Made by a program: the position numbers and the translations under genes
Source of the DNA: a virus
Lineage: Duplodnaviria > Heunggongvirae > Uroviricota > Caudoviricetes
Length of the DNA stretch: 41,720 nt
Strand: one strand, 5' to 3'
IMG/VR virus record: IMGVR_UViG_2923360383_000008
Notes under the pieces: generated by a model
Seen by the model: only the letters and a program-made list of their open reading frames with translations
Told to the model about the DNA's origin: nothing
Database searches by the model: none
In this document: piece by piece, positions 6,745 to 41,720 of the stretch
Layout of the letters: each line of letters starts with the position of its first letter
Numbering within the stretch: the first letter of the stretch is position 1

Positions 6745-6760
6745 TTAGCAAATGAATTTA

Positions 6761-7176: not shown

Positions 7177-7219
7177 CTGCCAGTCTGTTCCATTTGGCTT
7201 CCAGCGTCCTGCTGACGGT

Positions 7220-7464: not shown

Positions 7465-7469
7465 TTGTA

Positions 7470-8222
7470 TTATGCTGCAAGTCTCTTAACCCAAGTCTCT
7501 CTTTTGGAGAATGGTAGAACTTGGCTTGATTCATGGAAGAGTAAGGAGAGTTGTTGCATTTGATCACCAATTGCTTCGCTGTCTATAACAACAAATCTGT
7601 TGTTATACTCCTCACTTGAAGCTTTAAGATCAATTAGTTTCCCAAGCAATGAGTAAGCACTATTCCAGCTTCCTCCGTGTTTCACGCTTGATGTAAAAAC
7701 GTATTTAGGTATGTCGGTTTTTATTGTTACAGGGACGGTAATTTGATGTCCACTCAAGCCATATACGTTTTCACGAAGAGAAAGTGCGTCTCTAAGCTCT
7801 GTGTGATATAGATAATCAATAACCATACTTTCAAACTTTTCAGCTTGAACTGGCTGATACCAGTCTAACGACAAAGTTGATGCGAGTATACCAGCTCTAA
7901 TTATGTTCGATGTAATCGCACCGACATCCTTTTCTGTTGCCCAAGCAATGATTTCTCCTCGAGCATTGAGTTCTGCGCCTTCTTTAAGCAGTAATTGTCG
8001 TATCTCATCAAGTCGTTTTTTGGTAAGCGAGATCCCTCTTGCCTCCATATTCATTAAGGCATCGCATCTGTCACTAACTAAATACCTACCATTGACTTCA
8101 CGGATAAAGGCACCGACATGCTCTCCATCATCACAGTAAGTGAATGGACTGATAATTCTCAAGGTCTTGCCTATTGGATGGCATTCGAAACCTAGTTGTG
8201 AGATCACTGTTGAGCACATCAT
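7470..8222 (-). CDS. Hypothetical protein, distal gene of rexAB-slot operon (candidate phage-exclusion factor)
   Basis: 250-aa ORF, ATGA-coupled to upstream gene; AT-rich relative to rest of prophage; no motif I recognise. Confidence 0.6.
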   Translation of the reverse strand: MMCSTVISQLGFECHPIGKTLRIISPFTYCDDGEHVGAFIREVNGRYLVSDRCDALMNMEARGISLTKKRLDEIRQLLLKEGAELNARGEIIAWATEKDVGAITSNIIRAGILASTLSLDWYQPVQAEKFESMVIDYLYHTELRDALSLRENVYGLSGHQITVPVTIKTDIPKYVFTSSVKHGGSWNSAYSLLGKLIDLKASSEEYNNRFVVIDSEAIGDQMQQLSLLFHESSQVLPFSKRETWVKRLAA

Positions 8223-8776
8223 ATTCCAAACCCCATTTGCCCCGACTCATCTTCAAGCGGTAAAGGTATTCTCCCAGAGTAAGTTATGTTCAGATGTTTA
8301 CAGAAGTAATTCCAATACCCTACCAGGTCATCTGGGTTTATGTCATCTTCGATTGGAAACGCTATTCTATCACTATAGTATCCAGCTTCTTCATAGTATA
8401 CATGGTAGTGAGCACCGTAAATGATATCTTGGTACTTCGGATGATCGACCTTGTAACTATTCGTGTGTTTGTCAAAGTGATAGGTATCTACCGCGAAAAC
8501 CCTCTTGTTATGATAGAAAGCAATAATATTTATTTTAGGGTAAGAAATCGGGTCATCAGGTTCTGAATCCTGATCTGGTTTCCATTTCAGTTCAAACTTT
8601 AGCCCTTGTATAGGTATACAATCCTCATCCAAGGGGATGATATGGGCTTGTAGCCACATATCAGAGCGACTTGGTTTCTGTTTCCATTTAACGCCAGAAA
8701 AGTTAACTATTTTTTTACAATAAAGTACTTTATCAACTTCTACTTGGCTTGGCTGATAATCATCTATTTTTGCCAA
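8219..8776 (-). CDS. Hypothetical protein, proximal gene of rexAB-slot operon (candidate phage-exclusion factor)
   Basis: 185-aa ORF beginning 40 nt downstream of cI stop; apparent TTG start (first ATG is codon 40), so start uncertain; acidic, Tyr/His-rich; no motif I recognise. Confidence 0.55.
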   Translation of the reverse strand: MAKIDDYQPSQVEVDKVLYCKKIVNFSGVKWKQKPSRSDMWLQAHIIPLDEDCIPIQGLKFELKWKPDQDSEPDDPISYPKINIIAFYHNKRVFAVDTYHFDKHTNSYKVDHPKYQDIIYGAHYHVYYEEAGYYSDRIAFPIEDDINPDDLVGYWNYFCKHLNITYSGRIPLPLEDESGQMGFGI

Positions 8777-8815
8777 TGTTTACCGCCCTGTAAATTGTAG
8801 ATAAAAGTGGTTTCA

Positions 8816-9469
8816 TCACCCAAACGTCTCTTCAGGCCATTGGCTGGCGATAACTTTCCCCACAACGGAACAACTCTCATTGCATGGGATCATTGGGTAT
8901 TGTGGGTTTAGTGGCTGTAGAAACACCTGACCGCTATCCCTGATCAGTTTCTTGAAGGTAAATTCATCACCACCAAGTCTGGCTATGCAGAAATCGCCGG
9001 GCTCAACAGCTTGCTCAGGGTCAACCAGAATTAACATCCCGTCAGGAAAGCTGGGTTTGGAACCTGTTGGTGCGGTCATTGAGTTACCTTCAACCTCAAG
9101 CCAGAATGCAGAGTCACTGGCTTTTTTGGTTGTGCTTACCAATCTCTCCGCATCGCCTTTGGTAAAGGTTCTGAGTTCTGGAGAGAACATCCCAGCCTGA
9201 ACATGAGAAAAAACAGGGTACTCATATTGTTTTTTAACTGGGGCCGATGAGTATTCGCCAACAGGTGAAAATGTCCCGTCGTGGTTGAATGATATGTTAT
9301 CAATACCAAGGTATTTAAACACCACACCAATATCACTAAGAGATGGATGACGAGATCCGCGCAACCAGTGTCCAATCCCACCCTGCGTCATACCTAGCTC
9401 TTCGGCTAACTTCTCTTGAGTTATGCCGAGCTCTTTCATTCTGGATCTAGCCAGTTCATACCATTTCAT
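8816..9469 (-). CDS. cI: CI-type prophage repressor (HTH + LexA/S24-like autocleavage domain)
   Basis: C-terminal ~140 aa ([18 protein letters not shown]...GNSM...FKKL...[10 protein letters not shown]) matches lambda cI; N-terminal HTH ([22 protein letters not shown]) differs; start chosen at MKWYEL with AAGGA 7 nt upstream, ORF-track start is 9517. Confidence 0.85.
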
Positions 9470-9509
9470 TTTCATGTCCTTATTATTACGCTCTGTACTG
9501 GAACCATCC

Positions 9510-9560
9510 ATGCACAATGTGTATTTTTACTTGTATTCGCAAAGTACATATTGTATTTTT
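9510..9560 (+). promoter_or_regulatory. pR promoter with oR operator repeats (divergent pRM region)
   Basis: -35 TTGTAT (9531-9536), 17-nt spacer, -10 TATTTT (9554-9559); ACAATGTGT and TACATATTGTA inverted repeats of the same type as at oL. Confidence 0.45.
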
Positions 9561-9586
9561 TTATTCGTGTTTACTATGGAGGGCAT

Positions 9587-9802
9587 ATGAGCAACCTACG
9601 AAAATATCGAGAGTCACTGAATATCTCTCAAACAACACTTGCTAAGGCAGTTGGATGCACACAGGGAGCTATCGGACATTGGGAATCTGGTCGTCGCTTC
9701 CCAGACCTTAAAACATGCCGTGCTCTTGTTGCGTGCCTAAACAAGTTAGGCGCAAAAGTCAGTCTTGATGACGTGTTCCCGCCGGAACACAAAGCCGCTT
9801 AA
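9587..9802 (+). CDS. cro: Cro-like HTH (XRE family) regulator
   Basis: 71 aa; HTH QTTLAKAVGCTQGAIGHWESG; RBS GGAGGG before ATG; divergent from cI. Confidence 0.8.
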   Translation: MSNLRKYRESLNISQTTLAKAVGCTQGAIGHWESGRRFPDLKTCRALVACLNKLGAKVSLDDVFPPEHKAA

Positions 9803-9812
9803 TAAGCGGATC

Positions 9813-9858
9813 CGCTCTTTGTAACAACGGACATTCGTCCTACGTCGCTGAAAAGCGA
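9813..9858 (+). promoter_or_regulatory. Putative nutR (boxA CGCTCTTTGTAA; boxB UCGCUGAAAAGCGA)
   Basis: boxA-like CGCTCTTT followed by a 5-bp stem with GAAA loop, between cro and cII. Confidence 0.35.
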
Positions 9859-9943
9859 GTTCCAAGATATCTGACCAACTAAGGCCATATGCGTTTCCAC
9901 GCATACCTTTCAACTAACTATTCACTATTGGAAATCTTAAGAA

Positions 9944-10240
9944 ATGGAAAGAACAAGTTACAGCAAACTATCACAGCGTGACGTTGATCGCGCAGAAACA
10001 GATTTACTTATCAATCTGTCAGCTATTACCCAGCGCGGTCTGGCAAAGATGATTGGCTGTCATGAATCGAAGATAAGCAGAACGGACTGGAGATTTATTG
10101 CTTCGGTCTTGTGTGCTTTCGGAATGGCATCAGACATCAGTCCGATTAGCAGGGCTTTTAAGTATGCGCTTGATGGACTCACCAATAAAAAACGCCCGGC
10201 GGCAACCGAGCGTTCTGAACAAATCCAGATGGAATTCTGA
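9944..10240 (+). CDS. cII: CII transcriptional activator
   Basis: 98 aa; C-terminus LTNKKRPAATERSEQIQMEF matches lambda cII; N-terminal half divergent. Confidence 0.85.
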   Translation: MERTSYSKLSQRDVDRAETDLLINLSAITQRGLAKMIGCHESKISRTDWRFIASVLCAFGMASDISPISRAFKYALDGLTNKKRPAATERSEQIQMEF

Positions 10241-10272
10241 GGTCATTACTGGATCAATCCACAGGAGTCATT

Positions 10273-11172
10273 ATGACAAATACAGCAAAAATACTCAACT
10301 TCTGCAGAGGTAACTTTGCCAAACAGGAGCGTAATGTGGCAGATCTCGATGATGGTTACGCCAGACTATCAAATATGCTGCTTGAGGCTTATTCAGGCGC
10401 AGATCTGACCAAGCGACAGTTTAAAGTGCTGCTTGCCATTCTGCGTAAAACCTATGGATGGAATAAACCAATGGACAGAATCACCGATTCTCAACTTAGC
10501 GAGATTACAAAGTTACCCGTCAAACGGTGCAATGAAGCCAAGTTAGAACTCGTCAGAATGAATATTATCAAGCAGCAAGGCGGCATGTTTGGACCAAATA
10601 AAAACATCTCAGAATGGTGTATCCCTCAAAACGAGGGAAAATCCCCTAAAACGAGGGATAAAACATCCCTCAAATTGGGGGATTGCTATCCCTCAAAACA
10701 GGGGGACACAAAAGACACTATTACAAAAGAAAAAAGAAAAGATTATTCGTCAGAGAATTCTGGCGAATCCTCTGACCAGCCAGAAAACGACCTTTCTGTG
10801 GTGAAACCGGATGCTGCAATTCAGAGCGGCAGCAAGTGGGGGACAGCAGAAGACCTGACCGCCGCAGAATGGATGTTTGACATGGTGAAGACCATCGCGC
10901 CATCAGCCAGAAAACCGAATTTTGCAGGGTGGGCTAACGATATCCGCCTGATGCGTGAACGTGACGGACGTAACCATCGCGACATGTGTGTACTGTTCCG
11001 CTGGGCATGCCAGGACAACTTCTGGTCCGGTAACGTGCTGAGCCCGGCCAAACTCCGCGACAAGTGGACCCAGCTCGAAATCAACCGTAACAAGCAACAG
11101 GCAGGTGTGACAGCCTGCAAACCAAAACTCGACCTGACAAACACTGACTGGATTTACGGGGTGGATTTATGA
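10273..11172 (+). CDS. O: Replication initiator O
   Basis: 299 aa, lambda O length; contains ori iterons internally; RBS ACAGGAG. Confidence 0.95.
   Translation: MTNTAKILNFCRGNFAKQERNVADLDDGYARLSNMLLEAYSGADLTKRQFKVLLAILRKTYGWNKPMDRITDSQLSEITKLPVKRCNEAKLELVRMNIIKQQGGMFGPNKNISEWCIPQNEGKSPKTRDKTSLKLGDCYPSKQGDTKDTITKEKRKDYSSENSGESSDQPENDLSVVKPDAAIQSGSKWGTAEDLTAAEWMFDMVKTIAPSARKPNFAGWANDIRLMRERDGRNHRDMCVLFRWACQDNFWSGNVLSPAKLRDKWTQLEINRNKQQAGVTACKPKLDLTNTDWIYGVDL
10621..10760 (+). repeat. ori iterons (four ~19-bp ATCCCTCAAAACGAGGGA-type repeats) plus AT-rich tract
   Basis: Direct repeats atccctcaaaacgagggaaa / atcccctaaaacgagggata / catccctcaaattggggga / atccctcaaaacaggggga followed by an A-rich stretch, inside O. 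Confidence 0.85.
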
Positions 11173-11870
11173 AAAACATCGCCGCACAGATGGTTAATTT
11201 TGACCGTGAGCAGATGCGTCGGATCGCCAACAACATGCCGGAACAGTACGACGAAAAGCCGCAGGTACAGCAGGTAGCGCAGATCATCAACGGTGTGTTC
11301 AGCCAGTTACTGGCAACTTTCCCGGCGAGTCTGGCTAACCGTGACCAGAACGAACTGAACGAAATCCGCCGCCAGTGGGTTCTGGCTTTCCGGGAAAACG
11401 GGATCACCACAATGGAACAGGTTAACGCAGGAATGCGCGTAGCCCGTCGGCAGAATCGACCATTTCTGCCATCACCCGGGCAGTTTGTTGCATGGTGCCG
11501 GGAAGAAGCATCCGTTATCGCCGGACTGCCAAACGTCAGCGAGCTGGTTGATATGGTTTACGAGTATTGCCGGAAGCGAGGCCTGTATCCGGATGCAGAG
11601 TCTTATCCGTGGAAATCGAACGCGCACTACTGGCTGGTTACCAACCTGTACCAGAACATGCGGGCCAATGCGCTGACTGACGCGGAATTACGACGCAAGG
11701 CTGCCGATGAACTGACCTGTATGACAGCGCGAATTAACCGTGGTGAGACGATACCTGAACCAGTAAAACAACTTCCTGTCATGGGCGGCAGACCTCTAAA
11801 TCGTGTTCAGGCGCTGGCGAAGATCGTAGAAATTAAAGCTAAGTTAGGACTGAAAGGAGCAAGTGTATGA
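11169..11870 (+). CDS. P: Replication protein P (DnaB helicase loader)
   Basis: 233 aa matching lambda P; ATGA overlap with O. Confidence 0.95.
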   Translation: MKNIAAQMVNFDREQMRRIANNMPEQYDEKPQVQQVAQIINGVFSQLLATFPASLANRDQNELNEIRRQWVLAFRENGITTMEQVNAGMRVARRQNRPFLPSPGQFVAWCREEASVIAGLPNVSELVDMVYEYCRKRGLYPDAESYPWKSNAHYWLVTNLYQNMRANALTDAELRRKAADELTCMTARINRGETIPEPVKQLPVMGGRPLNRVQALAKIVEIKAKLGLKGASV

Positions 11871-12157
11871 CGGGCAAAGAGGCAATTATTCATTACCTGG
11901 GGACGCATAATAGCTTCTGTGCGCCGGACGTTGCCGCGCTAACAGGCGCAACAGTAACCAGCATAAATCAGGCCGCGGCTAAAATGGCACGGGCAGGTCT
12001 TCTGGTTATCGAAGGTAAGGTCTGGCGAACGGTGTATTACCGGTTTGCTACCAAGGAAGAACGGGAAGGAAAGATGAGCACGAACCTGATTTTTAAGGAG
12101 TGTCGCCAGAGTGCCACGATGAAACGGATATTGGCGGTATATGGAGTTAAAAGATGA
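11867..12157 (+). CDS. ren: Ren protein
   Basis: 96 aa MTGKEAIIHYLGTHNSFCAPDVAALTGATVTS... matches lambda Ren; ATGA overlap with P. Confidence 0.85.
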   Translation: MTGKEAIIHYLGTHNSFCAPDVAALTGATVTSINQAAAKMARAGLLVIEGKVWRTVYYRFATKEEREGKMSTNLIFKECRQSATMKRILAVYGVKR

Positions 12158-12182
12158 CCATCTACATCACTGAGCTAATAAC

Positions 12183-12214
12183 AGGCCTGCAGGTAATCGC
12201 AGGCCTTTTTATTT
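12183..12214 (+). terminator. tR2-like intrinsic terminator
   Basis: 8-bp stem AGGCCTGC...GCAGGCCT followed by TTTTTATTT between ren and ninB. Confidence 0.5.
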
Positions 12215-12230
12215 GGGGGAGAGGGAAGTC

Positions 12231-12671
12231 ATGAAAAAACTAACCTTTGAAATTCGATCTCCGGCACATCAGCAAAACGCTATTCACGCAGTACAGCAAA
12301 TCCTTCCAGACCCAACCAAACCAATCGTAGTAACCATTCAGGAACGCAACCGCAGCTTAGACCAAAACAGGAAGCTATGGGCCTGCTTAGGTGACGTCTC
12401 TCGTCAGGTTGAATGGCATGGTCGCTGGCTGGATGCAGAAAGCTGGAAGTGTGTGTTTACCGCAGCATTAAAGCAGCAGGATGTTGTTCCTAACCTTGCC
12501 GGGAATGGCTTTGTGGTAATAGGCCAGTCAACCAGCAGGATGCGTGTAAGCGAATTTGCGGAGCTATTAGAGCTTATACAGGCATTCGGTACAGAGCGTG
12601 GCGTTAAGTGGTCAGACGAAGCGCGACTGGCTCTCGAATGGAAAGCGCGATGGGGAGATCGGGCTGCATGA
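12231..12671 (+). CDS. ninB: NinB recombination protein
   Basis: 146 aa MKKLTFEIRSPAHQQNAIHAVQQILPDPTKP... matches lambda NinB. Confidence 0.85.
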   Translation: MKKLTFEIRSPAHQQNAIHAVQQILPDPTKPIVVTIQERNRSLDQNRKLWACLGDVSRQVEWHGRWLDAESWKCVFTAALKQQDVVPNLAGNGFVVIGQSTSRMRVSEFAELLELIQAFGTERGVKWSDEARLALEWKARWGDRAA

Positions 12672-13195
12672 CTATCAAATCAAATACGCCAGCACACGAC
12701 AAGGACTGCTGGCAAACGCCGCTTTGGCTTTTTGATGCACTGGATATTGAGTTTGGATTCTGGCTGGATTCGGCAGCGAGCGACAAAAATGCTCTGTGCG
12801 CTCACTGGCTAACTGAGGACGACGACGCGCTCAATTCTGAGTGGGTAAGCCACGGTGCAATCTGGAATAACCCACCGTACAGCAATATCAGGCCGTGGGT
12901 GGAAAAAGCCGCTGAGCAGTGTATACAACAGCGACAGACGGTAGTGATGCTTGTGCCAGAGGATATGTCTGTCGGATGGTTCAGCAAGGCTCTGGAGAGT
13001 GTTGACGAAGTTCGTATTATCACTGATGGACGGATTAATTTTATCGAACCATCGACAGGGCTGGAGAAGAAGGGAAACAGCAAAGGCTCCATGCTGCTGA
13101 TTTGGCGACCGTTCATCAGTCCTCGACGGATGTTTACTACCGTATCCAAAGCGGCATTGATGGCGATCGGGCAGGGCGTCAGGAGGGCTGCATGA
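12668..13195 (+). CDS. Phage DNA N6-adenine methyltransferase (Dam-like)
   Basis: NPPY motif ([10 protein letters not shown]) typical of amino-methyltransferases; ATGA overlap with ninB; no adjacent restriction gene. Confidence 0.75.
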
Positions 13196-13368
13196 GACGA
13201 CAGCGACGAAGCATCACCGACATAATCTGCGAAAACTGCAAATACCTTCCAACGAAACGCTCCAGAAATAAACGCAAGCTAATCCCAAAAGAATCTGACG
13301 TAAAAACCTTCAATTACACAGCCCACCTGTGGGATATCCGGTGGCTAAGATATCGTGCGAGGAAATGA
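13192..13368 (+). CDS. ninE: NinE-like protein
   Basis: 58 aa [27 protein letters not shown]... at ninE position; ATGA-coupled. Confidence 0.5.
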
Positions 13369-13712
13369 CAATGGATTATTCACAGTTAAGTGATTTTGAA
13401 ATTAACAGAATGGTAGGAGACATAATTTTTAAAGGCCTTTGGGCAAGTAAACCGGAAACATCAGGGAATAACACCAACAAATGGTATTACGGAAATGCTG
13501 ATACAACTTTTGAGCCATTAAATCATTTGCCTGACTACTGCAATGATCCGAGCGCTTCATGGCCGATTATTGAGAAATACAGGATTTCTATCTTAGACCA
13601 GTTAACTGAATGGTGTGTGGATGCAAAAGGCGTAAGCCCAATATTTGATACCAGACCTCTCCGCGCCGCCATGATTGTCTTTCTCCTGATGCAGGAGGCC
13701 AATAATGCTTAG
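13365..13712 (+). CDS. Hypothetical nin-region protein
   Basis: 115-aa ORF from [12 protein letters not shown] overlap with upstream gene; RBS GAGGAA. Confidence 0.5.
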
Positions 13713-13899
13713 CCCATCTCAATCCCTTCAATACCTGAAAGAAAGCATAGAGCGGGCTTCAATGTGCACAGAGTGGATTCTATCTAGGTTTAGCGCATAC
13801 AGAAGATTGCCGGTAAAGGGCATGCCAAGCAAGTCGATGCTGCATATGCAAAAGAATGCGCGCTGGAAGGTATGGCGAGAACACAGGTTATGTGGCTGA
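13705..13899 (+). CDS. Hypothetical nin-region protein
   Basis: 64-aa ORF overlapping upstream stop. Confidence 0.4.
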
Positions 13900-13918
13900 A
13901 AGAGGGGGTTATTAAGGC

Positions 13919-14281
13919 GTGAATACCTACAGCATCACATTACCCTGGCCTCCGAGCAATAATCGCTATTACCGCCATAATCGCGGGCGCACGCACGTCA
14001 GCGCAGAGGGGCAGGCATACCGCGATAACGTCGCCCGAATCATTAAAAACGCAATGCTGGATATCGGCCTGGCTATGCCTGTGAAAATCCGCATTGAGTG
14101 CCACATGCCGGATCGCCGTCGCCGTGACCTGGATAATCTGCAAAAAGCCGCTTTTGACGCACTCACTAAAGCAGGTTTCTGGCTGGATGATGCTCAGGTC
14201 GTTGATTACCGCGTTGTGAAGATGCCTGTTACCAAAGGTGGGAGGCTGGAACTGACCATCACCGAAATGGGGAATGAATGA
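13919..14281 (+). CDS. rusA: RusA Holliday-junction resolvase
   Basis: 120 aa [34 protein letters not shown]... matches E. coli/DLP12 RusA as I recall; GTG start. Confidence 0.9.
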
Positions 14282-14418
14282 TGTTTGAGTTTAATATGGC
14301 AGAACTTCTTCGCCACCGCTGGGGGCGTCTGCGCTTATATCGTTTCCTCGGTTCTGTTTTGACCGATTACCGAATACTGAAGAATTACGCCAAAACCCTG
14401 ACAGGAACAGGAGTATGA
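14278..14418 (+). CDS. Small protein (YlcG-like)
   Basis: 46 codons [23 protein letters not shown]... found by hand; ATGA overlap with rusA; below ORF-track cutoff. Confidence 0.4.
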
Positions 14419-14503
14419 AGTCAGAGATAACAATCAACTAATACTGTTTTGTTGATTTTTGCTTGTAATTGGCGTTCTGGTCTGATTTTTGTGGAGTAAG
14501 TTG

Positions 14504-14887
14504 ATGCGTGATATTCAGATGGTTCTTGAGCGTTGGGGTGCGTGGGCGGCTAATAATCATGAAGATGTGACCTGGTCGTCCATTGCCGCCGGTTTTAAGG
14601 GATTAATTCCTTCAAAAGTAAAATCTCGCCCGCAATGTTGTGACGATGACGCGATGATCATTTGCGGGTGCATGGCCCGTCTGAAAAAGAACAACAGCGA
14701 TTTACACGATTTATTAGTAGATTATTATGTATGTGGTATGACATTCATGTCACTGGCAAGTAAGCATTGCTGCTCGGATGGTTATATCGGGAAAAGGTTA
14801 CAGAAGGCTGAGGGCATAATTGAAGGGATGTTAATGGCATTAGATATCCGGTTAGATATGGATATCGTTGCTAATAATTCTAATTGA
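14504..14887 (+). CDS. Q-like late-gene antiterminator
   Basis: 127 aa from ATG 14504 (RBS GGAG); Cys-rich ([12 protein letters not shown]...CC); located between rusA and lysis module; ORF-track start 14489 is a TTG. Confidence 0.8.
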
Positions 14888-15024
14888 TATGCAATTGTTT
14901 ACTAAAAGTTATTAAAAATGGGGCGTGGAAACGCCCCCAAAATAAAGGGTAATATATAACAGAAGGTTTATATAGTAAGAAGCAAGGTAGTGCTTCTAAA
15001 GGAAGTGGCTTGAGGGCTCCACTT

Positions 15025-15064
15025 ATATGTTGCGGAGGCAAAGCCTCCCGCAACATATCTTTTT
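15025..15064 (+). terminator. Strong intrinsic terminator downstream of Q
   Basis: 14-bp stem (one bulge) ATATGTTGCGGAGGC-aaa-GCCTCCCGCAACATAT followed by CTTTTT. Confidence 0.5.
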
Positions 15065-15075
15065 CGTAAGTCAGA

Positions 15076-16158
15076 TTAGAACTGATAAACCAGACCTACA
15101 GCGACGATGTCGTCGGTATCAATACCAGCTGTTTTGGTAAACTTACTATCGTCAATTAAGTTGATTTTGTAATCAACAAAAGTGGACATGTTTTTATTAA
15201 AGTAGTAAGTAGCACCGACATCGACATACTTGACTAAGTCTCGGTCACCATGAACACCAAGGTCTTTACCTTTTGACTGAAGGTAAGCAACAGATGGACG
15301 CAGACCGAAGTCAAACTGATATTGTGCTACTGCTTCAAAGTTTTGTGCTTTGTTTGCAATATGGTTATTACCAAAAACGGTCATATTCTGAGTTTCAGAA
15401 TATGTGGTAGCCAGATAGATATTGTTCGCATCATATTTCAGGCCTGCAGCCCATACTTCCGCATTTTTGCCGGAGGCATTGAATTTGCTCTTACCATAGG
15501 CGACCTGACCGTCAGTGCGATCTGATTTAGCATAGGTTGCACCCACGCCGAATCCTTCATACTCATAAGTAGTGGAGAAACCGAAACCATCACCATTGGC
15601 TTCAGTTACGTCAGTGCGGTCATTTTTACCCTGATACTGAGCAGCAAAGTTCAGGCCATCGACCAGACCAAAGAAGTCGTTGTTACGATAAGTTGCAACA
15701 CCAGTAGTGCGACCAGTCATGAACACATCTGTTTGGGTCCAGGTATCACCACCGAATTCTGGCAGAACGTCAGTCCACGCACCGATGTCGTATGCTACAC
15801 CGTAGTTACGGCCGTAATCGATTGAGCCGTAATCACCAAATTTCAGGCCTGCAAATGCAAGACGGGTTTTGTCTTTGGAAGAACCTTGAGATTCAGCACG
15901 GTTGCCTTTGAATTCATATTCCCACTGACCGAAACCAGTCAGTTGATCGTTGATTTGGGTTTCACCTTTGAAGCCAAGACGGGCATAAGTAGTATCACCA
16001 TCATCTGCATCATTAGAGGAGAAGTAGTGCTTGGCATTAACTTTCCCGTATAGATCCAGCTTGTTACTGTCTTTATTATAAATTTCAGCTGCCTGAGCAG
16101 ACATCGCCATCAGTACTGATGCAGCTACAGCAGAAATTGCCACTGTTAATTTTTTCAT
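15076..16158 (-). CDS. OmpC/NmpC/Lc-type general porin (lysogenic-conversion moron)
   Basis: 360 aa from [14 protein letters not shown] (signal peptide ...[10 protein letters not shown]), C-terminal ...VGLVYQF beta-barrel terminus; antisense to the late operon. Confidence 0.9.
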
Positions 16159-16585
16159 TGTACGCCCTTTTTTTGAACTATTATTAAAAAATGATGTCAC
16201 TGCGCGATAAATATTCATCTAATCAATGTGATTATTTCAAGATGTAAGTTTTAGTTTCTCATTTAATTTGTGAAGTAGATCTCTATTTTTATCTGAACCT
16301 TTTCTATCTAATCCTATTCATGGCTCTTGTCTGAACAAAAATAAATCTATTAGCTAATTTATATTAATGGCACTTATTTATAAGTGCTCTATAATTCTTT
16401 AGCTTAATTTAAACAAACTAAAAATAACATTGGAAATTATTAACTGGTTATTTGTTGAAGTTTTCTTATGCATTTGTGGTGGTGTTTTGAACACTCGGTG
16501 GCATTCTCACAAATATCATTTAGTAGTTTACGTACGTAAAAAATTGGTTATGCTGTTAAGAGTGGTTACTTCGTCACACAGCTTA

Positions 16586-16610
16586 AACCCGCCGTCGAGC
16601 GGGTTTTTCC
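16586..16610 (+). terminator. Intrinsic terminator upstream of lysis genes (candidate tR')
   Basis: Hairpin AACCCGC-cgtcga-GCGGGTT followed by TTTTTCCATTTTTT about 140 nt upstream of holin. Confidence 0.45.
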
Positions 16611-16746
16611 ATTTTTTGAGTCTCGATATTAGCTGATAACCCAATACCTGAGTTATTCACTGACTCCGAATCTGTTACGTTTCTGCCTTTATTGCGATAC
16701 GTAGTATCCCCTTAATTTACACCCGCTTTGTCTGCGAGGTGGGGTT

Positions 16747-16962
16747 ATGAAATCCATGGATAAGTTAACAACGGGTGTCGCCTATGGTACCTCAGCAGGT
16801 AGTGCCGGGTACTGGTTTTTACAGTTGCTCGATAAAGTCACGCCCTCACAGTGGGCGGCAATAGGTGTGCTGGGTAGCCTGGTATTTGGCCTGCTGACGT
16901 ACCTGACAAACCTTTATTTCAAGATTAAAGAAGATAAGCGCAAGGCTGCGAGAGGTGAATAA
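16747..16962 (+). CDS. Class II holin (phage 21 S-type pinholin, dual start)
   Basis: 71 aa [26 protein letters not shown]... two TM segments; Met1-Lys-Ser-Met4 dual-start motif. Confidence 0.85.
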
Positions 16963-17459
16963 TGCCTCCATCATTACGAAAAGCCGTTGCTGCTGCTATT
17001 GGTGGCGGAGCAATTGCTATAGCATCAGTGTTAATCACTGGCCCAAGTGGTAACGATGGTCTGGAAGGTGTCAGCTACATACCATACAAAGATATTGTTG
17101 GTGTATGGACTGTATGTCACGGGCATACAGGAAAAGACATCATGCTCGGTAAAACGTATACCAAAGCAGAATGCAAAGCCCTCCTGAATAAAGACCTTGC
17201 CACGGTCGCCAGACAAATTAACCCGTACATCAAAGTCGATATACCGGAAACAATGCGCGGCGCTCTTTACTCATTCGTTTACAACGTGGGTGCTGGCAAT
17301 TTCAGAACATCGACGCTTCTTCGCAAAATAAACCAGGGCGATATCAAAGGCGCATGTGATCAGCTACGTCGCTGGACATATGCTGGCGGTAAGCAATGGA
17401 AAGGTCTCATGACTCGTCGTGAGATTGAGCGTGAAATCTGTTTGTGGGGTCAGCAATGA
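16962..17459 (+). CDS. SAR endolysin (T4-lysozyme-like muramidase with N-terminal signal-anchor-release domain)
   Basis: 165 aa; N-terminal Gly/Ala-rich hydrophobic stretch [18 protein letters not shown] then lysozyme-like core. Confidence 0.9.
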
Positions 17460-17917
17460 ACAGAGTAACCGCGATTATCTCCGCTCTGGTTATCTGCATC
17501 ATCGTCTGCCTGTCATGGGCTGTTAATCATTACCGTGATAACGCCATTACCTACAAAGCCCAGCGCGACAAAAATGCCAGAGAACTGACGCTGGCGAACG
17601 CGGTAATTACTGACATACAGATGCGTCAGCGTGATGTTGCTGCGCTCGATGCAAAATACACGAAGGAGTTAGCTGATGCGAAAGCTGAAAATGATGCTCT
17701 GCGTGATGATGTTGCCGCTGGTCGTCGTCGGTTGCACATCAAAGCAGTCTGTCAGTCAGTGCGTGAAGCCACCACCGCCTCCGGCGTGGATAATGCAGCC
17801 TCCCCCCGACTGGCAGACACCGCTGAACGGGATTATTTCACCCTCAGAGAGAGGCTGATCACTATGCAAAAACAACTGGAAGGAACCCAGAAGTATATTA
17901 ATGAGCAGTGCAGATAG
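17456..17917 (+). CDS. Rz i-spanin
   Basis: 153 aa with N-terminal TM and coiled-coil-prone body; ATGA overlap with endolysin. Confidence 0.8.
17676..17858 (+). CDS. Rz1 o-spanin lipoprotein (embedded in Rz, +1 frame)
   Basis: 60 aa; lipobox VVVGC; proline-rich ([15 protein letters not shown]). Confidence 0.7.
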
Positions 17918-17948
17918 AGCTGCCCATATCGATGGGCAACTCATGCAA

Positions 17949-18242
17949 TTATTGTGAGCAATACACACGCGCTTCCAGCGGAGTATAAATGCCTAAAGTA
18001 ATAAAACCGAGCAATCCATTTACGAATGTTTGCTGGGTTTCTGTTTTAACAACATTTTCTGCACCACCACAAATTTTTGCTGCATCGACAGTTTTCTTCT
18101 GCCCAATTCCCGAAACGAAGAAATGATGGGTGATGGTTTCCTTTGGTGTTACTGCTGTAGGTTTGTTTCCAACAGTAAACGTCTGTTGAGCACATCCTGT
18201 AATAAGCATTGCCAGAGCGGCAGAAAACAACATTTTTTTCAT
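17949..18242 (-). CDS. bor: Bor lipoprotein (serum-resistance moron)
   Basis: 97 aa MKKMLFSAALAMLITGCAQQTFTV...EARVYCSQ matches lambda Bor; lipobox ITGC. Confidence 0.85.
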   Translation of the reverse strand: MKKMLFSAALAMLITGCAQQTFTVGNKPTAVTPKETITHHFFVSGIGQKKTVDAAKICGGAENVVKTETQQTFVNGLLGFITLGIYTPLEARVYCSQ

Positions 18243-35537: not shown

Positions 35538-38500
35538 ATGGGTAAAGGCAGCAGTAAGGGGCATACCCCGCGCGAAGCGAAGGACAACCTGAAATCATCC
35601 CAGATGCTGAGCGTGATAGACGCCATCAGCGAAGGGCCGGTTGAAGGTCCGGTGGATGGATTAAAAAGCGTGCTGCTGAACAGTACGCCGGTGCTGGACA
35701 GTGAGGGGAATACCAATATATTCGGCGTCACGGTGGTGTTCCGGGCCGGTGAGCAGGAGCAGACTCCGCCGGAGGGATTTGAATCCTCCGGCTCCGAGAC
35801 GGTGCTCGGTACAGAAGTGAAATATGACACGCCGATCACCCGGACCATCACGTCGGCAAACATTGACCGTCTGCGTTTTACTTTCGGCGTGCAGGCACTG
35901 GTGGAAACCACCTCAAAGGGGGACAGGAATCCATCGGAAGTCCGCCTGCTGGTTCAGATTCAACGTAACGGTGGCTGGGTGACGGAAAAAGACATCACCA
36001 TTAAGGGCAAAACCACGTCGCAGTATCTGGCCTCGGTGGTGGTGGATAACCTGCCGCCGCGCCCGTTTAATATCCGGATGCGCAGGATGACGCCGGACAG
36101 CACCACAGACCAGTTGCAGAACAAAACGCTCTGGTCGTCATACACCGAAATCATCGATGTGAAACAGTGCTACCCGAACACGGCACTGGTCGGCGTACAG
36201 GTGGACTCGGAGCAGTTCGGCAGCCAGCAGGTGAGCCGTAATTATCATCTTCGCGGGCGCATTCTGCAGGTGCCGTCGAACTATAACCCGCAGACGCGGC
36301 AATACAGCGGTATCTGGGACGGAACGTTTAAGCCAGCATACAGCAACAACATGGCCTGGTGTCTGTGGGATATGCTGACCCATCCGCGCTACGGCATGGG
36401 GAAACGTCTTGGTGCGGCAGATGTGGATAAATGGGCGCTGTATGTCATCGGCCAGAATTGCGACCAGTCAGTGCCGGACGGCTTTGGCGGCACGGAGCCG
36501 CGCATCACCTGTAATGCGTACCTGACCACACAGCGCAAGGCGTGGGATGTGCTCAGTGATTTTTGCTCGGCGATGCGCTGTATGCCGGTATGGAACGGGC
36601 AGACGCTGACATTCGTGCAGGACCGACCGTCGGATAAGGTGTGGACCTATAACCGCAGTAATGTGGTGATGCCGGATGATGGCGCGCCGTTCCGCTACAG
36701 CTTCAGCGCCCTGAAAGACCGCCATAATGCCGTTGAGGTGAACTGGATTGACCCGGATAACGGCTGGGAGACGGCGACAGAGCTTGTGGAGGACACGCAG
36801 GCCATTGCCCGTTACGGTCGTAACGTCACGAAGATGGATGCCTTTGGCTGTACCAGCCGGGGGCAGGCACACCGCGCCGGGCTGTGGCTGATTAAAACGG
36901 AGCTGCTGGAAACGCAGACCGTGGACTTCAGCGTGGGTGCAGAAGGGCTTCGCCATGTACCGGGCGATGTCATTGAAATCTGTGATGATGACTATGCGGG
37001 GATCAGCATCGGCGGGCGCGTGCTGGCGGTGAACAACCAGACGCGGACACTGACGCTCGACCGTGAAATCACGCTGCCATCCTCCGGCACCACGCTGATA
37101 AGCCTGGCTGACGGACAGGGGAATCCGGTCAGCGTGGAGGTCCAGTCCGTCACCGACGGCGTGAAGGTAAAAGTGAGCCGTGTTCCTGACGGCGTTGCAG
37201 AATACAGCGTGTGGGGGCTGAAGTTGCCAACGTTGCGCCAGCGCCTGTTCCGCTGTGTGAGTATCCGTGAGAACGATGACGGCACGTATGCCATCACTGC
37301 CGTGCAGCATGTACCGGAAAAAGAGGCCATCGTGGATAACGGGGCGCACTTTGACGGCGACCAGAGCGGCACGGTGAATGGTGTCACGCCGCCAGCGGTG
37401 CAGCACCTGACTGCCGAAGTCACCGCAGACAGCGGGGAATATCAGGTGCTGGCGCGCTGGGACACGCCGAAGGTGGTGAAGGGGGTGAGCTTTATGCTTC
37501 GCCTGACCGTGGCAGCGGATGACGGCAGTGAGCGGCTGGTCAGCACGGCCCGGACGACGGAAACCACATACCGCTTCAGGCAACTGGCGCTGGGGAACTA
37601 CAGGCTGACAGTCCGGGCGGTAAATGCGTGGGGGCAGCAGGGCGATCCGGCATCGGTATCGTTCCGGATTGCCGCACCGGCAGCGCCGTCGCAGATTGAG
37701 CTGACACCGGGGTATTTTCAGATAACCGCCACGCCGCATCTTGCGGTTTATGATCCGACGGTACAGTTTGAGTTCTGGTTCTCGGAAAAGCGGATTGCGG
37801 ATATCAGGCAGGTTGAAACCACAGCACGCTATCTTGGCACGGCGCTGTACTGGATAGCCGCCAGTATCAATATCAAACCGGGCCATGATTATTATTTTTA
37901 CATCCGCAGTGTGAACACCGTTGGCAAATCGGCATTTGTGGAGGCTGTTGGCCAGCCGAGTGATGATGCATCCGGCTATCTGAATTTTTTCAAAGGAGAG
38001 ATAGGGAAAACCCATCTGGCTCAGGAGTTGTGGACGCAGATTGATAACGGTCAGCTTGCGCCTGACCTGGCTGAAATCAGGACGTCCATTACGGGTGTCA
38101 GCAATGAAATCACGCAGACCGTCAATAAGAAACTGGAAGACCAGAGTGCAGCGATCCAGCAGATACAGAAGGTTCAGGTTGATACAAATAATAACCTGAA
38201 CAGCATGTGGGCTGTGAAGCTGCAGCAGATGCAGGACGGACGCCTTTATATCGCGGGTATTGGTGCCGGTGTTGAGAATACTCCTGACGGTATGCAGAGT
38301 CAGGTGCTGCTGGCGGCGGACAGGATTGCGATGATTAATCCTGCGAATGGCAACACAAAGCCGATGTTTGTTGGGCAGGGCGATCAGATATTCATGAACG
38401 AAGTGTTCCTGAAATATCTGACGGCTCCCACCATTACCAGCGGTGGCAATCCCCCAACGTTTTCACTGACACCTGATGGTCGACTTTCTGCGAAAAATGC

Positions 38501-39020
38501 GGATATCAGCGGTAACGTGAACGCGAACTCCGGGACGCTCAACAACGTCACGATTAATCAGAACTGTCGGATTCTGGGAAAACTGTCAGCTAACCAGATT
38601 GAAGGTGATATTGTCAAAACGGTGGGAAAAGCCTTTCCGAGAAATGGCAGTTATGCCAGCGGTACAATAACGGTCACTGTGTACGATGACCAGGCTTTTG
38701 ACCGTCAGATAGTAGTCCCCCCCGTTCTGTTTCGTGGGGGTAAGCATGAAAACTTCAACAGCAACAACCAACAGTCATACTGGTATTCAACCTGTAAGCT
38801 GCAGGTACTGAAGAACGGACAGGAAATCTTTCAGCAACCCGCGACGGATGTCAGCAGGGTATTTTCATCAGTCATTGATATGCCTGCCGGACACGGCCAT
38901 GTCACCCTGACTTTCAATGTTTCTTCATATGGTGCTAATAACTGGACGCCAACGACCAGTATCAGCGACCTTCTTGTTGTTGTGATGAAGAAATCTACAG
39001 CCGGTATCAGTATCAGTTGA
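35538..39020 (+). CDS. J: Central tail fibre / host specificity protein J
   Basis: 1160 aa; N-terminal [24 protein letters not shown]... and fibronectin-type repeats parallel lambda gpJ. Confidence 0.95.
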
Positions 39021-39039
39021 ATTTTATAACCCAGATACG

Positions 39040-39065
39040 GGCGCCAGAAATGGCGCCTTTTTTAT
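39040..39065 (+). terminator. Intrinsic terminator between J and side tail fibre gene
   Basis: 7-bp GC-rich stem GGCGCCA-gaaa-TGGCGCC followed by TTTTTTTATTT. Confidence 0.55.
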
Positions 39066-39078
39066 TTGTGGAGTGAAT

Positions 39079-41139
39079 ATGGCAGTACAGATTTCAGGCG
39101 TGCTGAAAGACGGTGCAGGAAAACCGATACAGAACTGCACCATTCAGCTCAAAGCAAAACGTAACAGCACCACGGTTGTGGTGAACACGGTGGCCTCAGA
39201 AAATCCGGATGAAGCCGGACGTTACAGCATGGATGTCGAGTATGGCCAGTACAGCGTTATCCTGCTGGTTGAAGGTTTTCCGCCTTCACATGCCGGGGCC
39301 ATCACCGTGTATGAGGATTCTAAGCCGGGGACATTGAATGATTTTCTGGGCGCTGCAACAGAAGATGATGTTCGTCCGGAGGCACTGTATCGTTTTGAAA
39401 AGATGGTGGAAGAGGTGGCACGCAACGCTGAAGCCGCCTCTCAGAGCGCAGCGGCAGCAAAGAAATCAGAAACAGCAGCGGCATCGTCCAGGAATGCGGC
39501 GAAAACATCAGAGACGAATGCAGGTAACAGCGCGAAAGCGGCAGCTTCTTCAAAAACAGCCGCACAAAACGCAGCAACAGCGGCAGAACGTTCAGAGACA
39601 AATGCCCGTGCGTCAGAAGAAGCCTCCGCAGACAGTGAAGAGGCTTCCCGCCGTAATGCAGAGTCAGCCGCTGAAAATGCCGGAGTCGCCACCACAAAAG
39701 CGCGGGAGGCCGCAGCAGACGCAACAAAGGCCGGGCAGAAAAAGGATGAGGCTCTGTCGGCAGCGACACGGGCTGAAAAGGCGGCAGACCGCGCAGAAGT
39801 CGCAGCGGAAGTGACTGCAGAGCCCTATGCGAATATAGTGCCGCCGCTGCCTGATGTGTGGATACCGTTTAACGATTCACTGGATATGATTGCGGGTTTT
39901 TCTCCGGGCTATAAAAAAATAGCTATTGGTGACGATGTGGTTCAGGTCGCCAGTGATAAACAGGTTAATTTCAGTCGCGCATCAACGGCAACATATATCA
40001 ACAAATCTGGCGAACTGAAAACGGCGGAAATTAATGAGCCGCGATTTGAGTGTGATGGCCTGCTTATTGAGGGACAAAGAACGAACTACATGCTCAATTC
40101 GGAAAGTCCAGCCAGCTGGGGGAAGTCATCAAACATGGATGTGCCCGAAACCGGGACAGATAGTTTTGGTTTTACTTATGGAAAGTTTGTCTGCAACGAT
40201 TCTCTGGTTGGGCAAACTTCGGCTATTAATATGGCATCAATTGCTGCAACAAAGTCAGTTGATGTCTCAGGCGATAACAAGTACGTGACAACCTCATGCC
40301 GTTTTAAAACAGAACGACAGGTAAGGTTACGTATACGGTTTGATAAGTATGATGGTAGTGCAACAACTTTTCTTGGCGATGCGTACATTGATACGCAAAC
40401 GCTTGAAATTAATATGACAGGTGGGGCTGCCGGCAGAATTACGGCACGAGTCAGGAAGGATAAGACCACAGGCTGGATTTTTGCAGAGGCAACGATTCAG
40501 GCAATTGATGGTGAGTTAAAAATAGGCTCTCAGATACAGTATTCTCCTGAGCGGGGTGGGGCAACAGTATCTGGTGACTATATTTATCTTGCCACCCCAC
40601 AAGTAGAGAATGGGCCGTGTGTATCATCATTTATTATTTCAGGAGGCAGCGCAACGACAAGAGCCAGTGATTTGGTTAGTATCCCCACCAGAAATAATCT
40701 TTATAAGTTACCATTTACTTTTTTACTTGAGATTCATAAAAACTGGGATATTGCACCAAACGCCGCACCCCGCGTGTGGGATATAGCAGCAGCCAATACC
40801 GGGCAATCAGCAATTGCAGCAATCAACAGAGGTAGTGGTAAGTTATATATGAGTCTGTCAAACCCTTCAGGCTTGTATGTTAATAGCGCAGCGACAGATG
40901 TATTTGCAGAGAAAACCACATTTGGATGTATTGCAAAAGCTGATGGTCACTTTCATGTGGTGACAAATGGTAAAGCGGTTAATGAAGTTTATTGTGAATA
41001 TAATGGTGTGACCGCTGATAAAAATATCCGATTTGGAGGGCAGACGAATACTGGAGAACGACATCTGTTTGGCCATATTCGCAATTTCCGCATATGGCAT
41101 AAAGAATTAAATGACAGGCAATTAAAAGAGGTCGTATGA
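39079..41139 (+). CDS. stf: Side tail fibre protein, chimeric (lambda Stf-like N-terminus, distinct C-terminal domain)
   Basis: First ~100 aa MAVQISGVLKDGAGKPIQNCTIQLKAKRNSTTVVVNTVASENPDEAGRYSMDVEYGQYSV... match lambda Stf; then Ala/Ser/Glu-rich repeats (SETNA motif x3); C-terminal ~440 aa unrelated to lambda Stf and ending HLFGHIRNFRIWHKELNDRQLKEVV. Confidence 0.75.
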   Translation: MAVQISGVLKDGAGKPIQNCTIQLKAKRNSTTVVVNTVASENPDEAGRYSMDVEYGQYSVILLVEGFPPSHAGAITVYEDSKPGTLNDFLGAATEDDVRPEALYRFEKMVEEVARNAEAASQSAAAAKKSETAAASSRNAAKTSETNAGNSAKAAASSKTAAQNAATAAERSETNARASEEASADSEEASRRNAESAAENAGVATTKAREAAADATKAGQKKDEALSAATRAEKAADRAEVAAEVTAEPYANIVPPLPDVWIPFNDSLDMIAGFSPGYKKIAIGDDVVQVASDKQVNFSRASTATYINKSGELKTAEINEPRFECDGLLIEGQRTNYMLNSESPASWGKSSNMDVPETGTDSFGFTYGKFVCNDSLVGQTSAINMASIAATKSVDVSGDNKYVTTSCRFKTERQVRLRIRFDKYDGSATTFLGDAYIDTQTLEINMTGGAAGRITARVRKDKTTGWIFAEATIQAIDGELKIGSQIQYSPERGGATVSGDYIYLATPQVENGPCVSSFIISGGSATTRASDLVSIPTRNNLYKLPFTFLLEIHKNWDIAPNAAPRVWDIAAANTGQSAIAAINRGSGKLYMSLSNPSGLYVNSAATDVFAEKTTFGCIAKADGHFHVVTNGKAVNEVYCEYNGVTADKNIRFGGQTNTGERHLFGHIRNFRIWHKELNDRQLKEVV

Positions 41140-41414
41140 AAGATTTAACTTTGAAGTTTCATGACAAACTGCAGTTTAAGGCCTTCCTGTCATCTCTTGA
41201 CTGGGAGGAGGATGAAGACCTCCAGAATAAACTGTTAGTCGATGAAATTGGTTTCACCTACACAGAAACAGGGGTAACAGAAGAGGGAGAACCTGTCTGT
41301 GTCCGGAATGACGGTTATTTTGTCAACATTCGCATTCTTGATGACTTGTTTGATGTTTCTGTATTCTCTGATTATGTCGTGGAGCTGGAAACACCGCTTC
41401 GGGAATGGAGCTGA
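41136..41414 (+). CDS. Hypothetical acidic protein coupled to tail fibre gene (possible fibre chaperone/accessory)
   Basis: 92 aa; ATGA overlap with stf stop; not lambda Tfa-like. Confidence 0.45.
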   Translation: MKDLTLKFHDKLQFKAFLSSLDWEEDEDLQNKLLVDEIGFTYTETGVTEEGEPVCVRNDGYFVNIRILDDLFDVSVFSDYVVELETPLREWS

Positions 41415-41426
41415 AAGGAGGAAATA

Positions 41427-41720
41427 ATGGATATAAGCCCCTTACTTCATGCGCTTTGTGCTGTGGCTGCGCAGATACTGGTTGGTCTTTTTACCGGAAA
41501 CTGGGCTTACGGAGCGATAGCCGGTTGTACGTTCTTCATTGCGCGTGAACATACCCAGGCAGAATATCGCTGGATTGAAATGTTCGGGCATGGCAAGCGA
41601 ATGAATATGCCGTGGTGGGGCGGTTTTGATCCGCGAGCTTGGGATGTGGCAAGCCTGATGGATTTTGCTGTGCCGGTGGTGGCGTGTCTGCTGGTCTGGC
41701 TGTTGGTTAATCGTGGGTGA
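41427..41720 (+). CDS. Hypothetical small membrane protein
   Basis: 97 aa with hydrophobic segments at both ends (AVAAQILVGLFTGNWAYGAIAGCTFFIA; VPVVACLLVWLLV); RBS AGGAGG; stop is the last codon of the window. Confidence 0.45.
   Translation: MDISPLLHALCAVAAQILVGLFTGNWAYGAIAGCTFFIAREHTQAEYRWIEMFGHGKRMNMPWWGGFDPRAWDVASLMDFAVPVVACLLVWLLVNRG

Follow-up and report, generated by a model that had tools for sequence, protein, structure and literature searches.

What does the tip of a side tail fibre bind when its distal part is unlike that of phage lambda, and what have the two small genes behind it to do with that tip? The question is raised by the 3' end of a 41,720-nucleotide viral sequence, IMG/VR record IMGVR_UViG_2923360383_000008 (the window, meaning the whole stretch analysed), where the side tail fibre gene stf is followed by open reading frames (ORFs) for proteins of 92 and 97 amino acids, here ORF92 and ORF97. 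Sequence comparison identifies the locus as the side tail fibre region of a phage-21-type (Jouyvirus) lambdoid prophage. The explanation that we consider probable, though well short of certain, is that Stf ends in a lectin-type, glycan-binding tip, that ORF92 is a partner of this tip and that ORF97 is a separate matter. Loci compared with the window are cited by number (L001 and so on), and the coordinates of all features are collected in Table 1.

Stf reads as a three-part mosaic of a lambda-type collar, a short Ala-rich shaft and a foreign, low-GC module that starts at residue ~254. Residues 1-131 match PF08400 (phage_tail_N) at E 1e-68 and 230 bits (cut-off 26.6), and residues 1-94 align with the solved collar of lambda Stf (9e7m_Ta) at E 1.4e-49, 83 of 94 positions being identical. 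Next comes an Ala/Ser/Glu-rich stretch with SETNA at residues 144 and 172; residues 134-240 align with lambda Stf 239-345 at 53% identity, in low-complexity sequence. In the Ur-lambda structure StfN touches both gpV and gpM and is joined by a flexible linker to a trimeric coiled coil (PMC12617516); by analogy with that structure the shaft of the window's Stf is presumed to be a trimeric coiled coil, and the conserved collar and shaft suggest that Stf would assemble on the virion as a trimer. Likeness to lambda Stf stops at about residue 240, beyond which no match to either lambda stf reading frame was found, including orf-314, the distal half of lambda Stf. The base composition changes too: the first 759 nt of stf have 55.1% G+C and the last 1302 nt 43.5%, and G+C at third codon positions is 36.5% in the C-terminal module versus 66% in the upstream gene J. 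ORF92 has 42.7% G+C and ORF97 53.1%. A first-pass annotation, made from the letters and their translations, had described a lambda Stf-like anchor, a region with repeated SETNA motifs and a C-terminal part unlike lambda Stf and lower in G+C, and all of this is borne out.

The module opens at PLPDVWIPFNDSLDM (residue ~256), and its second domain ends in the conserved tail IRFGGQT..G.RHLFGH.RNFRIWHK. The evidence points to two lectin-like domains, D1 and D2, rather than one. NCBIfam NF048003, 'phage head spike fiber domain', scored 55.3 bits on residues 329-529, above its curated cut-off of 36. In a search of the PDB with a 62-sequence profile, D1 matched the RcGTA head spike fibre Rcc01080 at E 9.7e-42, Sf11 gp17 at E 4e-20, and E217 gp45 and Pa193 gp46 at ~3e-16. 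Matches of the same profile at D2 were the S-layer domain 4qvs, BoNT/D Hc, pentraxins (CRP) and CBM40, and BoNT Hc-N was also among the matches. Laminin_G_3 (PF13385) reached 23.9 bits (E 5e-5) on residues 560-681, below the Pfam cut-off of 27.6, and a precomputed PF13385 match is present in some homologues. Pfam searches returned no Peptidase_S74 (PF13884) in Stf and no Caudo_TAP (PF02413) in Stf, ORF92 or ORF97; as had been stated before, a Tfa gene is not found here.

Structure prediction of residues ~250-686, proposed with the first-pass annotation as a check, gave a confident result. With an alignment enriched with 50%-cluster representatives, AlphaFold2 (AF2) returned an all-beta model of the module (pLDDT 93.7, pTM 0.90), while the model from a shallow alignment (pLDDT 50) was useless. 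The predicted fold is a jelly-roll beta-sandwich of the concanavalin A (ConA)-like superfamily. The whole module superposes on the tail fibres of coliphages rolling, EdH4 and NBEco002 in BFVD (TMq 0.89-0.95), and the best-scoring neighbours in the fold search are carbohydrate-binding modules, toxin lectin domains and domains that bind sialic acid or gangliosides. Two experimental entries, 6tb9 (RcGTA head fibre) and 9occ (Sf11 gp17), were dropped as fold evidence, since their modelled residues are only 2-10 and 3-165 (PMC7296036, PMC12724387); Rcc01080, resolved only at residues 2-10, supplies no experimental fold for the domain that it has in common with D1. The model thus supports a lectin-type, all-beta ConA-like fold. 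The ConA- or LamG-like C-terminus suggested earlier stands, then, on the profile and fold searches and on NF048003, with the qualifications that PF13385 falls below its cut-off and that two domains take the place of the one envisaged.

The DNA junctions show that this module moves between unrelated phages, as expected of the chimeric fibre with an exchanged C-terminal part that had been proposed. In L093, a P2-like prophage, and in L061, one unbroken blastn match of 1872 bp at 88% identity begins at the codons for PPLPDVWIPF and ends inside ORF97. In L093 a PF12571 fibre N-terminus precedes the match and a 74-aa Caudo_TAP remnant follows it; from the continuous match and the gene order we conclude that the three genes were transferred together into a myovirus backbone. 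Across the loci the module is joined to PF12571 (P2-type), PF03406-type and Stf collar N-termini. Exchange is also seen inside the module: phages of the Lambda_2E9 type have 94-95% DNA identity to the window on both flanks and no match over the variable core, which is flanked on one side by the conserved neck with early D1 and on the other by the conserved tail of D2. Among 54 distinct combinations, a single ORF92 group (group 0, >85% identical) is combined with four allele groups of D1 and four of D2. The module had also been called recently acquired. It is foreign and mobile, but a date is not assignable, and it occurs in thousands of E. coli prophages.

The module family comprises 2593 clusters at 90% identity, one of which alone holds 2232 sequences. 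In a 50%-identity library 2879 representatives match it at E<=1e-3 and 460 at E<=1e-10, the breadth of the distant relatives being taken from cluster counts only. The form with the DVWIPFND neck was found, in 5 genome loci, only in Escherichia and Buttiauxella plus one probably mis-binned metagenome-assembled genome (MAG). A 2.8-kb contig labelled as a Collinsella sp. MAG (L102, JAGZNZ010000051.1) has an E. coli-type fibre module with ORF92 and ORF97, and is most likely a mis-binned enterobacterial phage fragment.

We infer glycan binding by the tip from its fold neighbours, from capsule binding by the RcGTA fibre, from the habits of siphovirus lateral fibres and from the plating of phage IrisVonRoten. 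Binding data exist for a single homologue, the RcGTA head spike fibre, whose ligand is capsular polysaccharide (PMC7296036, PMC10218006). In siphoviruses, O-antigen or lipopolysaccharide (LPS) glycans are the usual targets of lateral fibres (PMC8594841, PMC12312913), and the Gifsy-1 Stf binds LPS core galactose (PMC12312913). Of the Markadamsvirinae in BASEL, IrisVonRoten (Bas32) alone plates on K-12 in which the O16 O-antigen has been restored (PMC8594841); it carries the module with ORF92 and also a second fibre, and the attribution of O16 to the module is not clean.

The same fold could serve another kind of receptor. The D1-D2 tip might recognise an outer-membrane protein, such as a porin, with the lectin-like fold acting as a protein-binding scaffold. 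Several structural neighbours, LamG/neurexin domains for instance, bind proteins; OmpC is the reported target of the Ur-lambda side fibres (PMC12617516), and the homologous domain of E217 gp45 and Pa193 gp46 is a structural baseplate component with no demonstrated sugar binding (PMC10329688). Set against this are the top-scoring folds, which are carbohydrate-, sialic acid- or ganglioside-binding, the capsule binding of RcGTA (PMC10218006), and the allelic diversity of the variable core, which resembles that of the O-antigen-tracking fibre loci of BASEL phages (PMC8594841). We regard a protein receptor as unlikely, although the idea keeps some weight.

ORF92 is a conserved partner of the module. 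Its ATG overlaps the TGA of stf (ATGA), and its product is acidic, with 22 D+E versus 8 K+R; the first-pass annotation had accurately described a coupled 92-aa acidic protein in the place of Tfa. The product has no Pfam, NCBIfam, PADLOC or PDB match and is placed only in PHROGs of unknown function. The idea of a Tfa-type (Caudo_TAP) chaperone was rejected, there being no PF02413 or related match, as was that of ORF92 or ORF97 as a defence protein, neither having a PADLOC match. Counted by clusters the ORF92 family is small (48), and nearly all of it comes from E. coli and Shigella. The two genes were found side by side in 94 loci, and in these ORF92 begins no more than a few bases from where the D1-D2 fibre gene ends, its start always overlapping or abutting the fibre stop codon, much as stf and tfa overlap in lambda. 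The only exceptions seen to this adjacency are L011 and L034, which are interrupted by an insertion sequence (IS).

The pair also crosses phage backbones. It occurs in a siphovirus-type prophage unrelated to the lambdoids (L003-L006), between the head and tail-tube genes, in the P2-like prophage L093, and in a Buttiauxella prophage, where it adjoins baseplate-looking genes. By tblastn against phage genomes (E<=1e-3), ORF92 was found in 145 records, directly after the module; the carriers include T1-like tunus, tonn and JK16, T5-like IrisVonRoten, EC100 and L6jm, the Dhillonvirus rolling, and JenP1. In further phages, such as rV5-like pangalan and T5-like SelmaRatti, a small ORF at the ORF92 position was missed by tblastn and matches the ORF92 hidden Markov model (HMM) at E 1e-14 to 1e-18. 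Over eight phage contexts ORF92 follows the module with HMM E-values of 1e-14 to 1e-54.

The identity of ORF92 tracks that of the neck (Spearman 0.72) and the D2 tail (0.79), not that of D1 (0.37), which suggests that ORF92 serves many receptor-binding alleles; physical linkage would explain the correlation with the neck and D2 tail. Many relatives have, in addition, a second, shorter fibre-like gene, either between ORF92 and ORF97 or, in lytic phages, directly after ORF92. In prophage loci it starts MATSTVIP or MVTKTVIP, and in L003-L006 it has a Peptidase_S74 domain; it is missing from the window and from phage 21. ORF92 may link two fibres; its role would be that of an assembly factor or a structural adaptor.

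ORF97 behaves differently. It was correctly described as a membrane protein of no assigned function: it has hydrophobic stretches at residues ~4-39 and 73-96, and no family, structure or defence-system match was found for it. Its family, wider and far better conserved than that of ORF92, amounts to 577 clusters of proteins of 95-102 aa (window; L095, L096, L097, L104-L182), which are ~60% identical among E. coli, Comamonas, Aeromonas, Leclercia and Citrobacter and share an invariant loop, F.AREHTQAEYRWI...MPWWGGFD. In a Comamonas prophage the gene before it encodes a giant J-like protein, in a Leclercia prophage a PF12571/S74 fibre, and one Aeromonas copy lies in an apparently non-phage chromosomal context. 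Among phage genomes, full-length ORF97 was found only in phages of temperate type of 38-50 kb, plus PhiR41_1 and phiHAP-1, and not in those carriers of the module that are lytic (T1-, T5- and rV5-like). Its identity is not correlated with that of ORF92 or of any part of the fibre (Spearman 0.0-0.27). These data point to an independent accessory gene of temperate phages that habitually sits at the 3' ends of fibre loci, and a role in lysogeny or exclusion is a reasonable guess, more likely than that of a fibre part. The earlier treatment of the two downstream genes as equals does not survive: ORF92 is tied to the module in many lineages and ORF97 is not.

One might go further and take both ORF92 and ORF97 for unrelated cargo (morons) that acts in the lysogen, by exclusion or through host fitness, rather than in the fibre. 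Both lack a family annotation, and for ORF97 such a reading is plausible, with its restriction to temperate phages, its independent assortment, its position after unrelated fibre genes and its one chromosomal occurrence, although no promoter-like site precedes it. It fails for ORF92, which follows the module in strictly lytic T1-, T5- and rV5-like phages, is always coupled to the fibre stop, and accompanies the module into P2-like and other backbones. For the pair as a whole we consider cargo distinctly improbable.

Under the lectin-type reading, the fibre might work as follows. The collar, homologous to a solved structure, would dock the fibre on the tail tip, and the short shaft would hold out the D1-D2 heads in the place of the gp37-like distal fibre of lambda. 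The heads would bind a surface polysaccharide (O-antigen, LPS core, capsule or enterobacterial common antigen, ECA) reversibly, as the primary receptor step. Such binding would enrich virions at the cell surface and speed up adsorption, after which J would engage the terminal receptor. Specificity would reside in the variable core at ~338-650, swapped by recombination between neck and D2 tail. If the tip is a self-contained globular unit, not an interdigitated trimeric needle, it would need no trimerisation chaperone of the Tfa type, and ORF92 could be a module-specific assembly factor or a structural accessory, possibly an adaptor for the second fibre.

The heads might instead cut what they bind, the module being a glycan hydrolase or lyase of ConA-like fold (GH16-, PL7- or PL20-like) that attacks O-antigen or capsule as tailspikes do; GH16 and PL7 catalytic signature motifs were not found in the module and the enzyme matches have lower Z, so that the depolymerase was rejected as very improbable. 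That stf is a decaying remnant no longer assembled on virions, as in laboratory lambda PaPa, is hardly credible: side fibres are dispensable on laboratory hosts (PMC12617516) and natural knock-outs exist (IS in 1W, 3W, 4A7 and Lambda_4C10), but the window's stf is intact, the same gene is present in the viable phages 21, ev017 and PhiR63_2, one 90% cluster holds those 2232 sequences, and the model folds confidently. The knock-outs are due to a three-ORF IS near the 3' end of stf, found in L011 (phage 1W, 5690-8106), in phages 3W, 4A7, Lambda_4C10 and D2, and in the IMG/VR locus L034; it cuts Stf to ~643 aa and parts it from ORF92. Laboratory lambda, with its stf frameshift, is a comparable case.

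Several points weigh against the reading of a glycan-binding tip with ORF92 as its partner and ORF97 apart. Domains of the ConA-like type can bind proteins too. The AF2 model is of a monomer and is silent on trimerisation of the tip. In the literature searchable here no receptor was found for this fibre or a close homologue; searches on the phage 21 Stf receptor, on the PhiR63 phages and on ConA-like coliphage fibres gave nothing specific. At the same tblastn threshold the module was found in 228 records as compared with the 145 with ORF92, a gap due only in part to divergence. The identity of ORF92 does not co-vary with the D1 and D2 alleles, and any contact must therefore involve conserved surfaces; pairing of ORF92 with allele-specific receptor surfaces was rejected, as ORF92 proteins 91-96% identical follow D1/D2 alleles that are only 37-41% identical. 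Finally, ORF97, 12 nt after ORF92 and with no promoter-like site upstream, fits late co-expression and not a classic moron.

A bolder proposal, to which we give less than even credence, is that the ORF92 family (phrog_1361/VOG7707) is a new kind of dedicated partner of lectin-type tips, either a chaperone that replaces Tfa or a cap or adaptor that docks a second fibre, and, separately, that ORF97 is a new inner-membrane factor of temperate phages acting in superinfection exclusion or receptor masking. The position of ORF97 is comparable to that of Cor or Llp.

Table 1. Features of the side tail fibre locus. Positions are those of the window unless a locus number is given.
Feature	Position	Strand	Basis
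Intrinsic terminator between J and stf, hairpin and U-tract	39039..39068	+	pattern scan, folding, phage 21 annotation
stf ribosome-binding site, GGAG	39070..39073	+	sequence; annotated in phage 21 record
stf, side tail fibre, 686 aa	39079..41139	+	ORF, ATG start
Stf N-terminal collar/anchor domain, aa 1-131	39079..39471	+	PF08400; 9e7m_Ta
Ala/Ser/Glu-rich shaft, aa ~100-250, two SETNA repeats	39376..39828	+	sequence; lambda alignment
Conserved neck, aa 253-296, PLPDVWIPFNDSLDM..., 5' recombination handle	39835..39966	+	invariant across differing N-terminal contexts
D1, aa 297-543, 'GTA/phage head spike fibre' domain, ConA-like fold assigned	39967..40707	+	
D2, aa 544-686, LamG/pentraxin-like	40708..41136	+	PF13385 sub-threshold; profile matches
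Variable core, aa ~338-650, presumed specificity determinant	40089..41027	+	swapped between otherwise near-identical phages
Mobile cassette: fibre module, ORF92 and ORF97	39838..41709	+	blastn to L093, L061
ORF92, small acidic protein (phrog_1361 / VOG7707)	41136..41414	+	ORF; partner of D1-D2 module
ORF97 ribosome-binding site, AGGAGG	41416..41421	+	sequence; phage 21 record annotates site at corresponding position
ORF97, small conserved membrane protein (phrog_1443)	41427..41720	+	ORF; hydropathy
Second fibre-like gene	L099 5123-6163; L101 5102-5806; L185 4102-5139; L184 4292-5029; L183 5289-7013; L003-L006 ~5341-6390		

The window's positions 38900-41720 are 100% identical in DNA to phage 21 (OL657228) and ev017 and 99.9% identical to PhiR63_2. 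The phage 21 product CPT_21_22, 'side tail fiber', is 100% identical to that of the window's stf; the three genes are labelled 'side tail fiber', 'hypothetical protein' and 'putative membrane protein' in GenBank, and the phage 21 genome announcement adds nothing on them beyond these labels (PMC9119081). The first 20 kb of the window are 100% identical to PhiR63_2. Positions 1-20000 have their genes in prophage order, with an integrase near the start and an OmpD/NmpC-like porin gene, as in PhiR63_2 and ev017. The window's final base completes the ORF97 stop codon. Beyond that point phage 21 and ev017 have the sitDCBA metal-transporter operon, on the opposite strand (L001 8913-12362); the end at 41720 is therefore an extraction boundary and not a biological one.

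The gene order is that of phage 21 and lambda. J occupies 35538-39020, with all six gpJ Pfam domains detected, and stf follows directly 3' in the late operon. The last 1.2 kb of J (37800-39020) have 49% G+C versus 55.6% for the whole gene; the receptor-binding end of J, too, may have been acquired separately. In the program's ORF list stf opens two codons earlier, at the upstream GTG 39073, which gives 688 aa. No lom gene (PF06316) was found in the 58-nt gap between J and stf, as had been noted; lom occupies this position in L007 and L008, the former otherwise equal in layout, so the locus has the ordinary lambdoid arrangement minus an optional moron. An antisense ORF of 149 aa (39320-39769, minus strand) lies within the Ala-rich shaft region; it resembles orf206b, annotated on the minus strand of lambda stf, and is probably a by-product of GCN-rich codons and no gene.

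The same gap holds the strong terminator that the first-pass annotation had seen as setting stf off from J. In the pattern scan it consists of GGGCGCCAGAAAUGGCGCC followed by U6 (T6 in DNA), with an 8-bp stem of which 6 pairs are GC, and its folding energy (dG) of -20.7 kcal/mol lies at z -4.3 versus shuffled sequences; the phage 21 GenBank record annotates the identical terminator. The hairpin is real, but the idea that it marks a special module boundary was rejected, lambda being arranged alike: terminator-like hairpins lie there after J and after lom, the second one immediately 5' of the GTGAATATGGCAGTA context of the stf start, which recurs in the window. Q-modified RNA polymerase passes through such terminators in lambdoid late transcription.

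Host recognition begins with the side and lateral tail fibres, which phage engineers swap to retarget lambda-based delivery particles. The tip type described here is among the commonest in E. coli prophages, and lytic phages of the T1-, T5- and rV5-like kinds have it too; no publication on its receptor, structure or assembly requirement was found. For chimeric fibres the data offer design rules: the module starts at PLPDVWIPF, specificity probably lies in ~338-650, and it is ORF92, not Tfa, that accompanies the module. Tail-fibre mosaicism is well established in phage biology, and the region is an instance of it plus an uncharacterised pair of accessory genes. The discovery is modest, the sequence being already public and annotated and the domain families already in existence; ORF92 has so far gone unstudied in the literature searchable here, where the cassette boundaries, the pairing of module and ORF92 in place of Tfa, and the ORF97 family also appear undescribed. 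If the proposal is right, ORF92 would be a new kind of fibre partner kept across lambdoid, P2-, T1-, T5-, rV5-, Dhillon- and JenP-type coliphages.

How does this fibre compare with known systems? Rcc01080 of RcGTA (GhsB; NF048003) is homologous to D1 and is a flexible, peripheral appendage of the virion with experimental capsule binding (PMC7296036, PMC10218006). However, it sits on capsid pentons by way of an N-terminal Ile/Leu-Gly repeat, as a single subunit and no tail fibre, and it has no D2. Stf has no such (I/L)-G penton-attachment repeat and a tail collar at its N-terminus instead; the domain is shared and the head-spike role is not. In E217 gp45, Pa193 gp46 and Sf11 gp17 the shared domain lies within baseplate or distal-tail proteins, not at a fibre end, and is seen with no D2, ORF92 or shown receptor role. 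The C-terminal appendage of Sf11 gp17 is called 'of unknown function' by its authors (PMC12724387); its residues ~217-404 (9occ chain C) are homologous to D1 and to the RcGTA domain (the profile match given above), which suggests a glycan-binding role for the appendage as well.

Among two-gene lateral fibre loci, that of the branched LtfA/LtfB fibres of T5-like phage DT57C (PMC4728585, PMC10713586) is alike in its layout, in O-antigen recognition and in C-terminal recombination that switches host range. It was rejected as a characterised homologue, since LtfA and LtfB end in self-cleaving Peptidase_S74 chaperone domains (PMC4728585), of which the window's Stf has none. T5 pb1 belongs to the same self-cleaving class. 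The Ur-lambda Stf/Tfa system (9e7m; PMC12617516) shares with the window a fibre gene just 3' of J, a hairpin directly 5' of the ribosome-binding site, the collar and an Ala-rich shaft. In the window the shaft is much shorter, the hinge, distal coiled coil and gp37-like receptor-binding domain of lambda are absent, and there is neither Tfa (Caudo_TAP) nor lom. The fibres of IrisVonRoten, SelmaRatti, tunus, rolling and pangalan differ in their N-terminal attachment (T5 Ltf-type, T1-type or myovirus), most come with a second fibre gene and none with ORF97; yet all have neck, D1 and D2 at 37-70% identity, followed by a homologue of ORF92.

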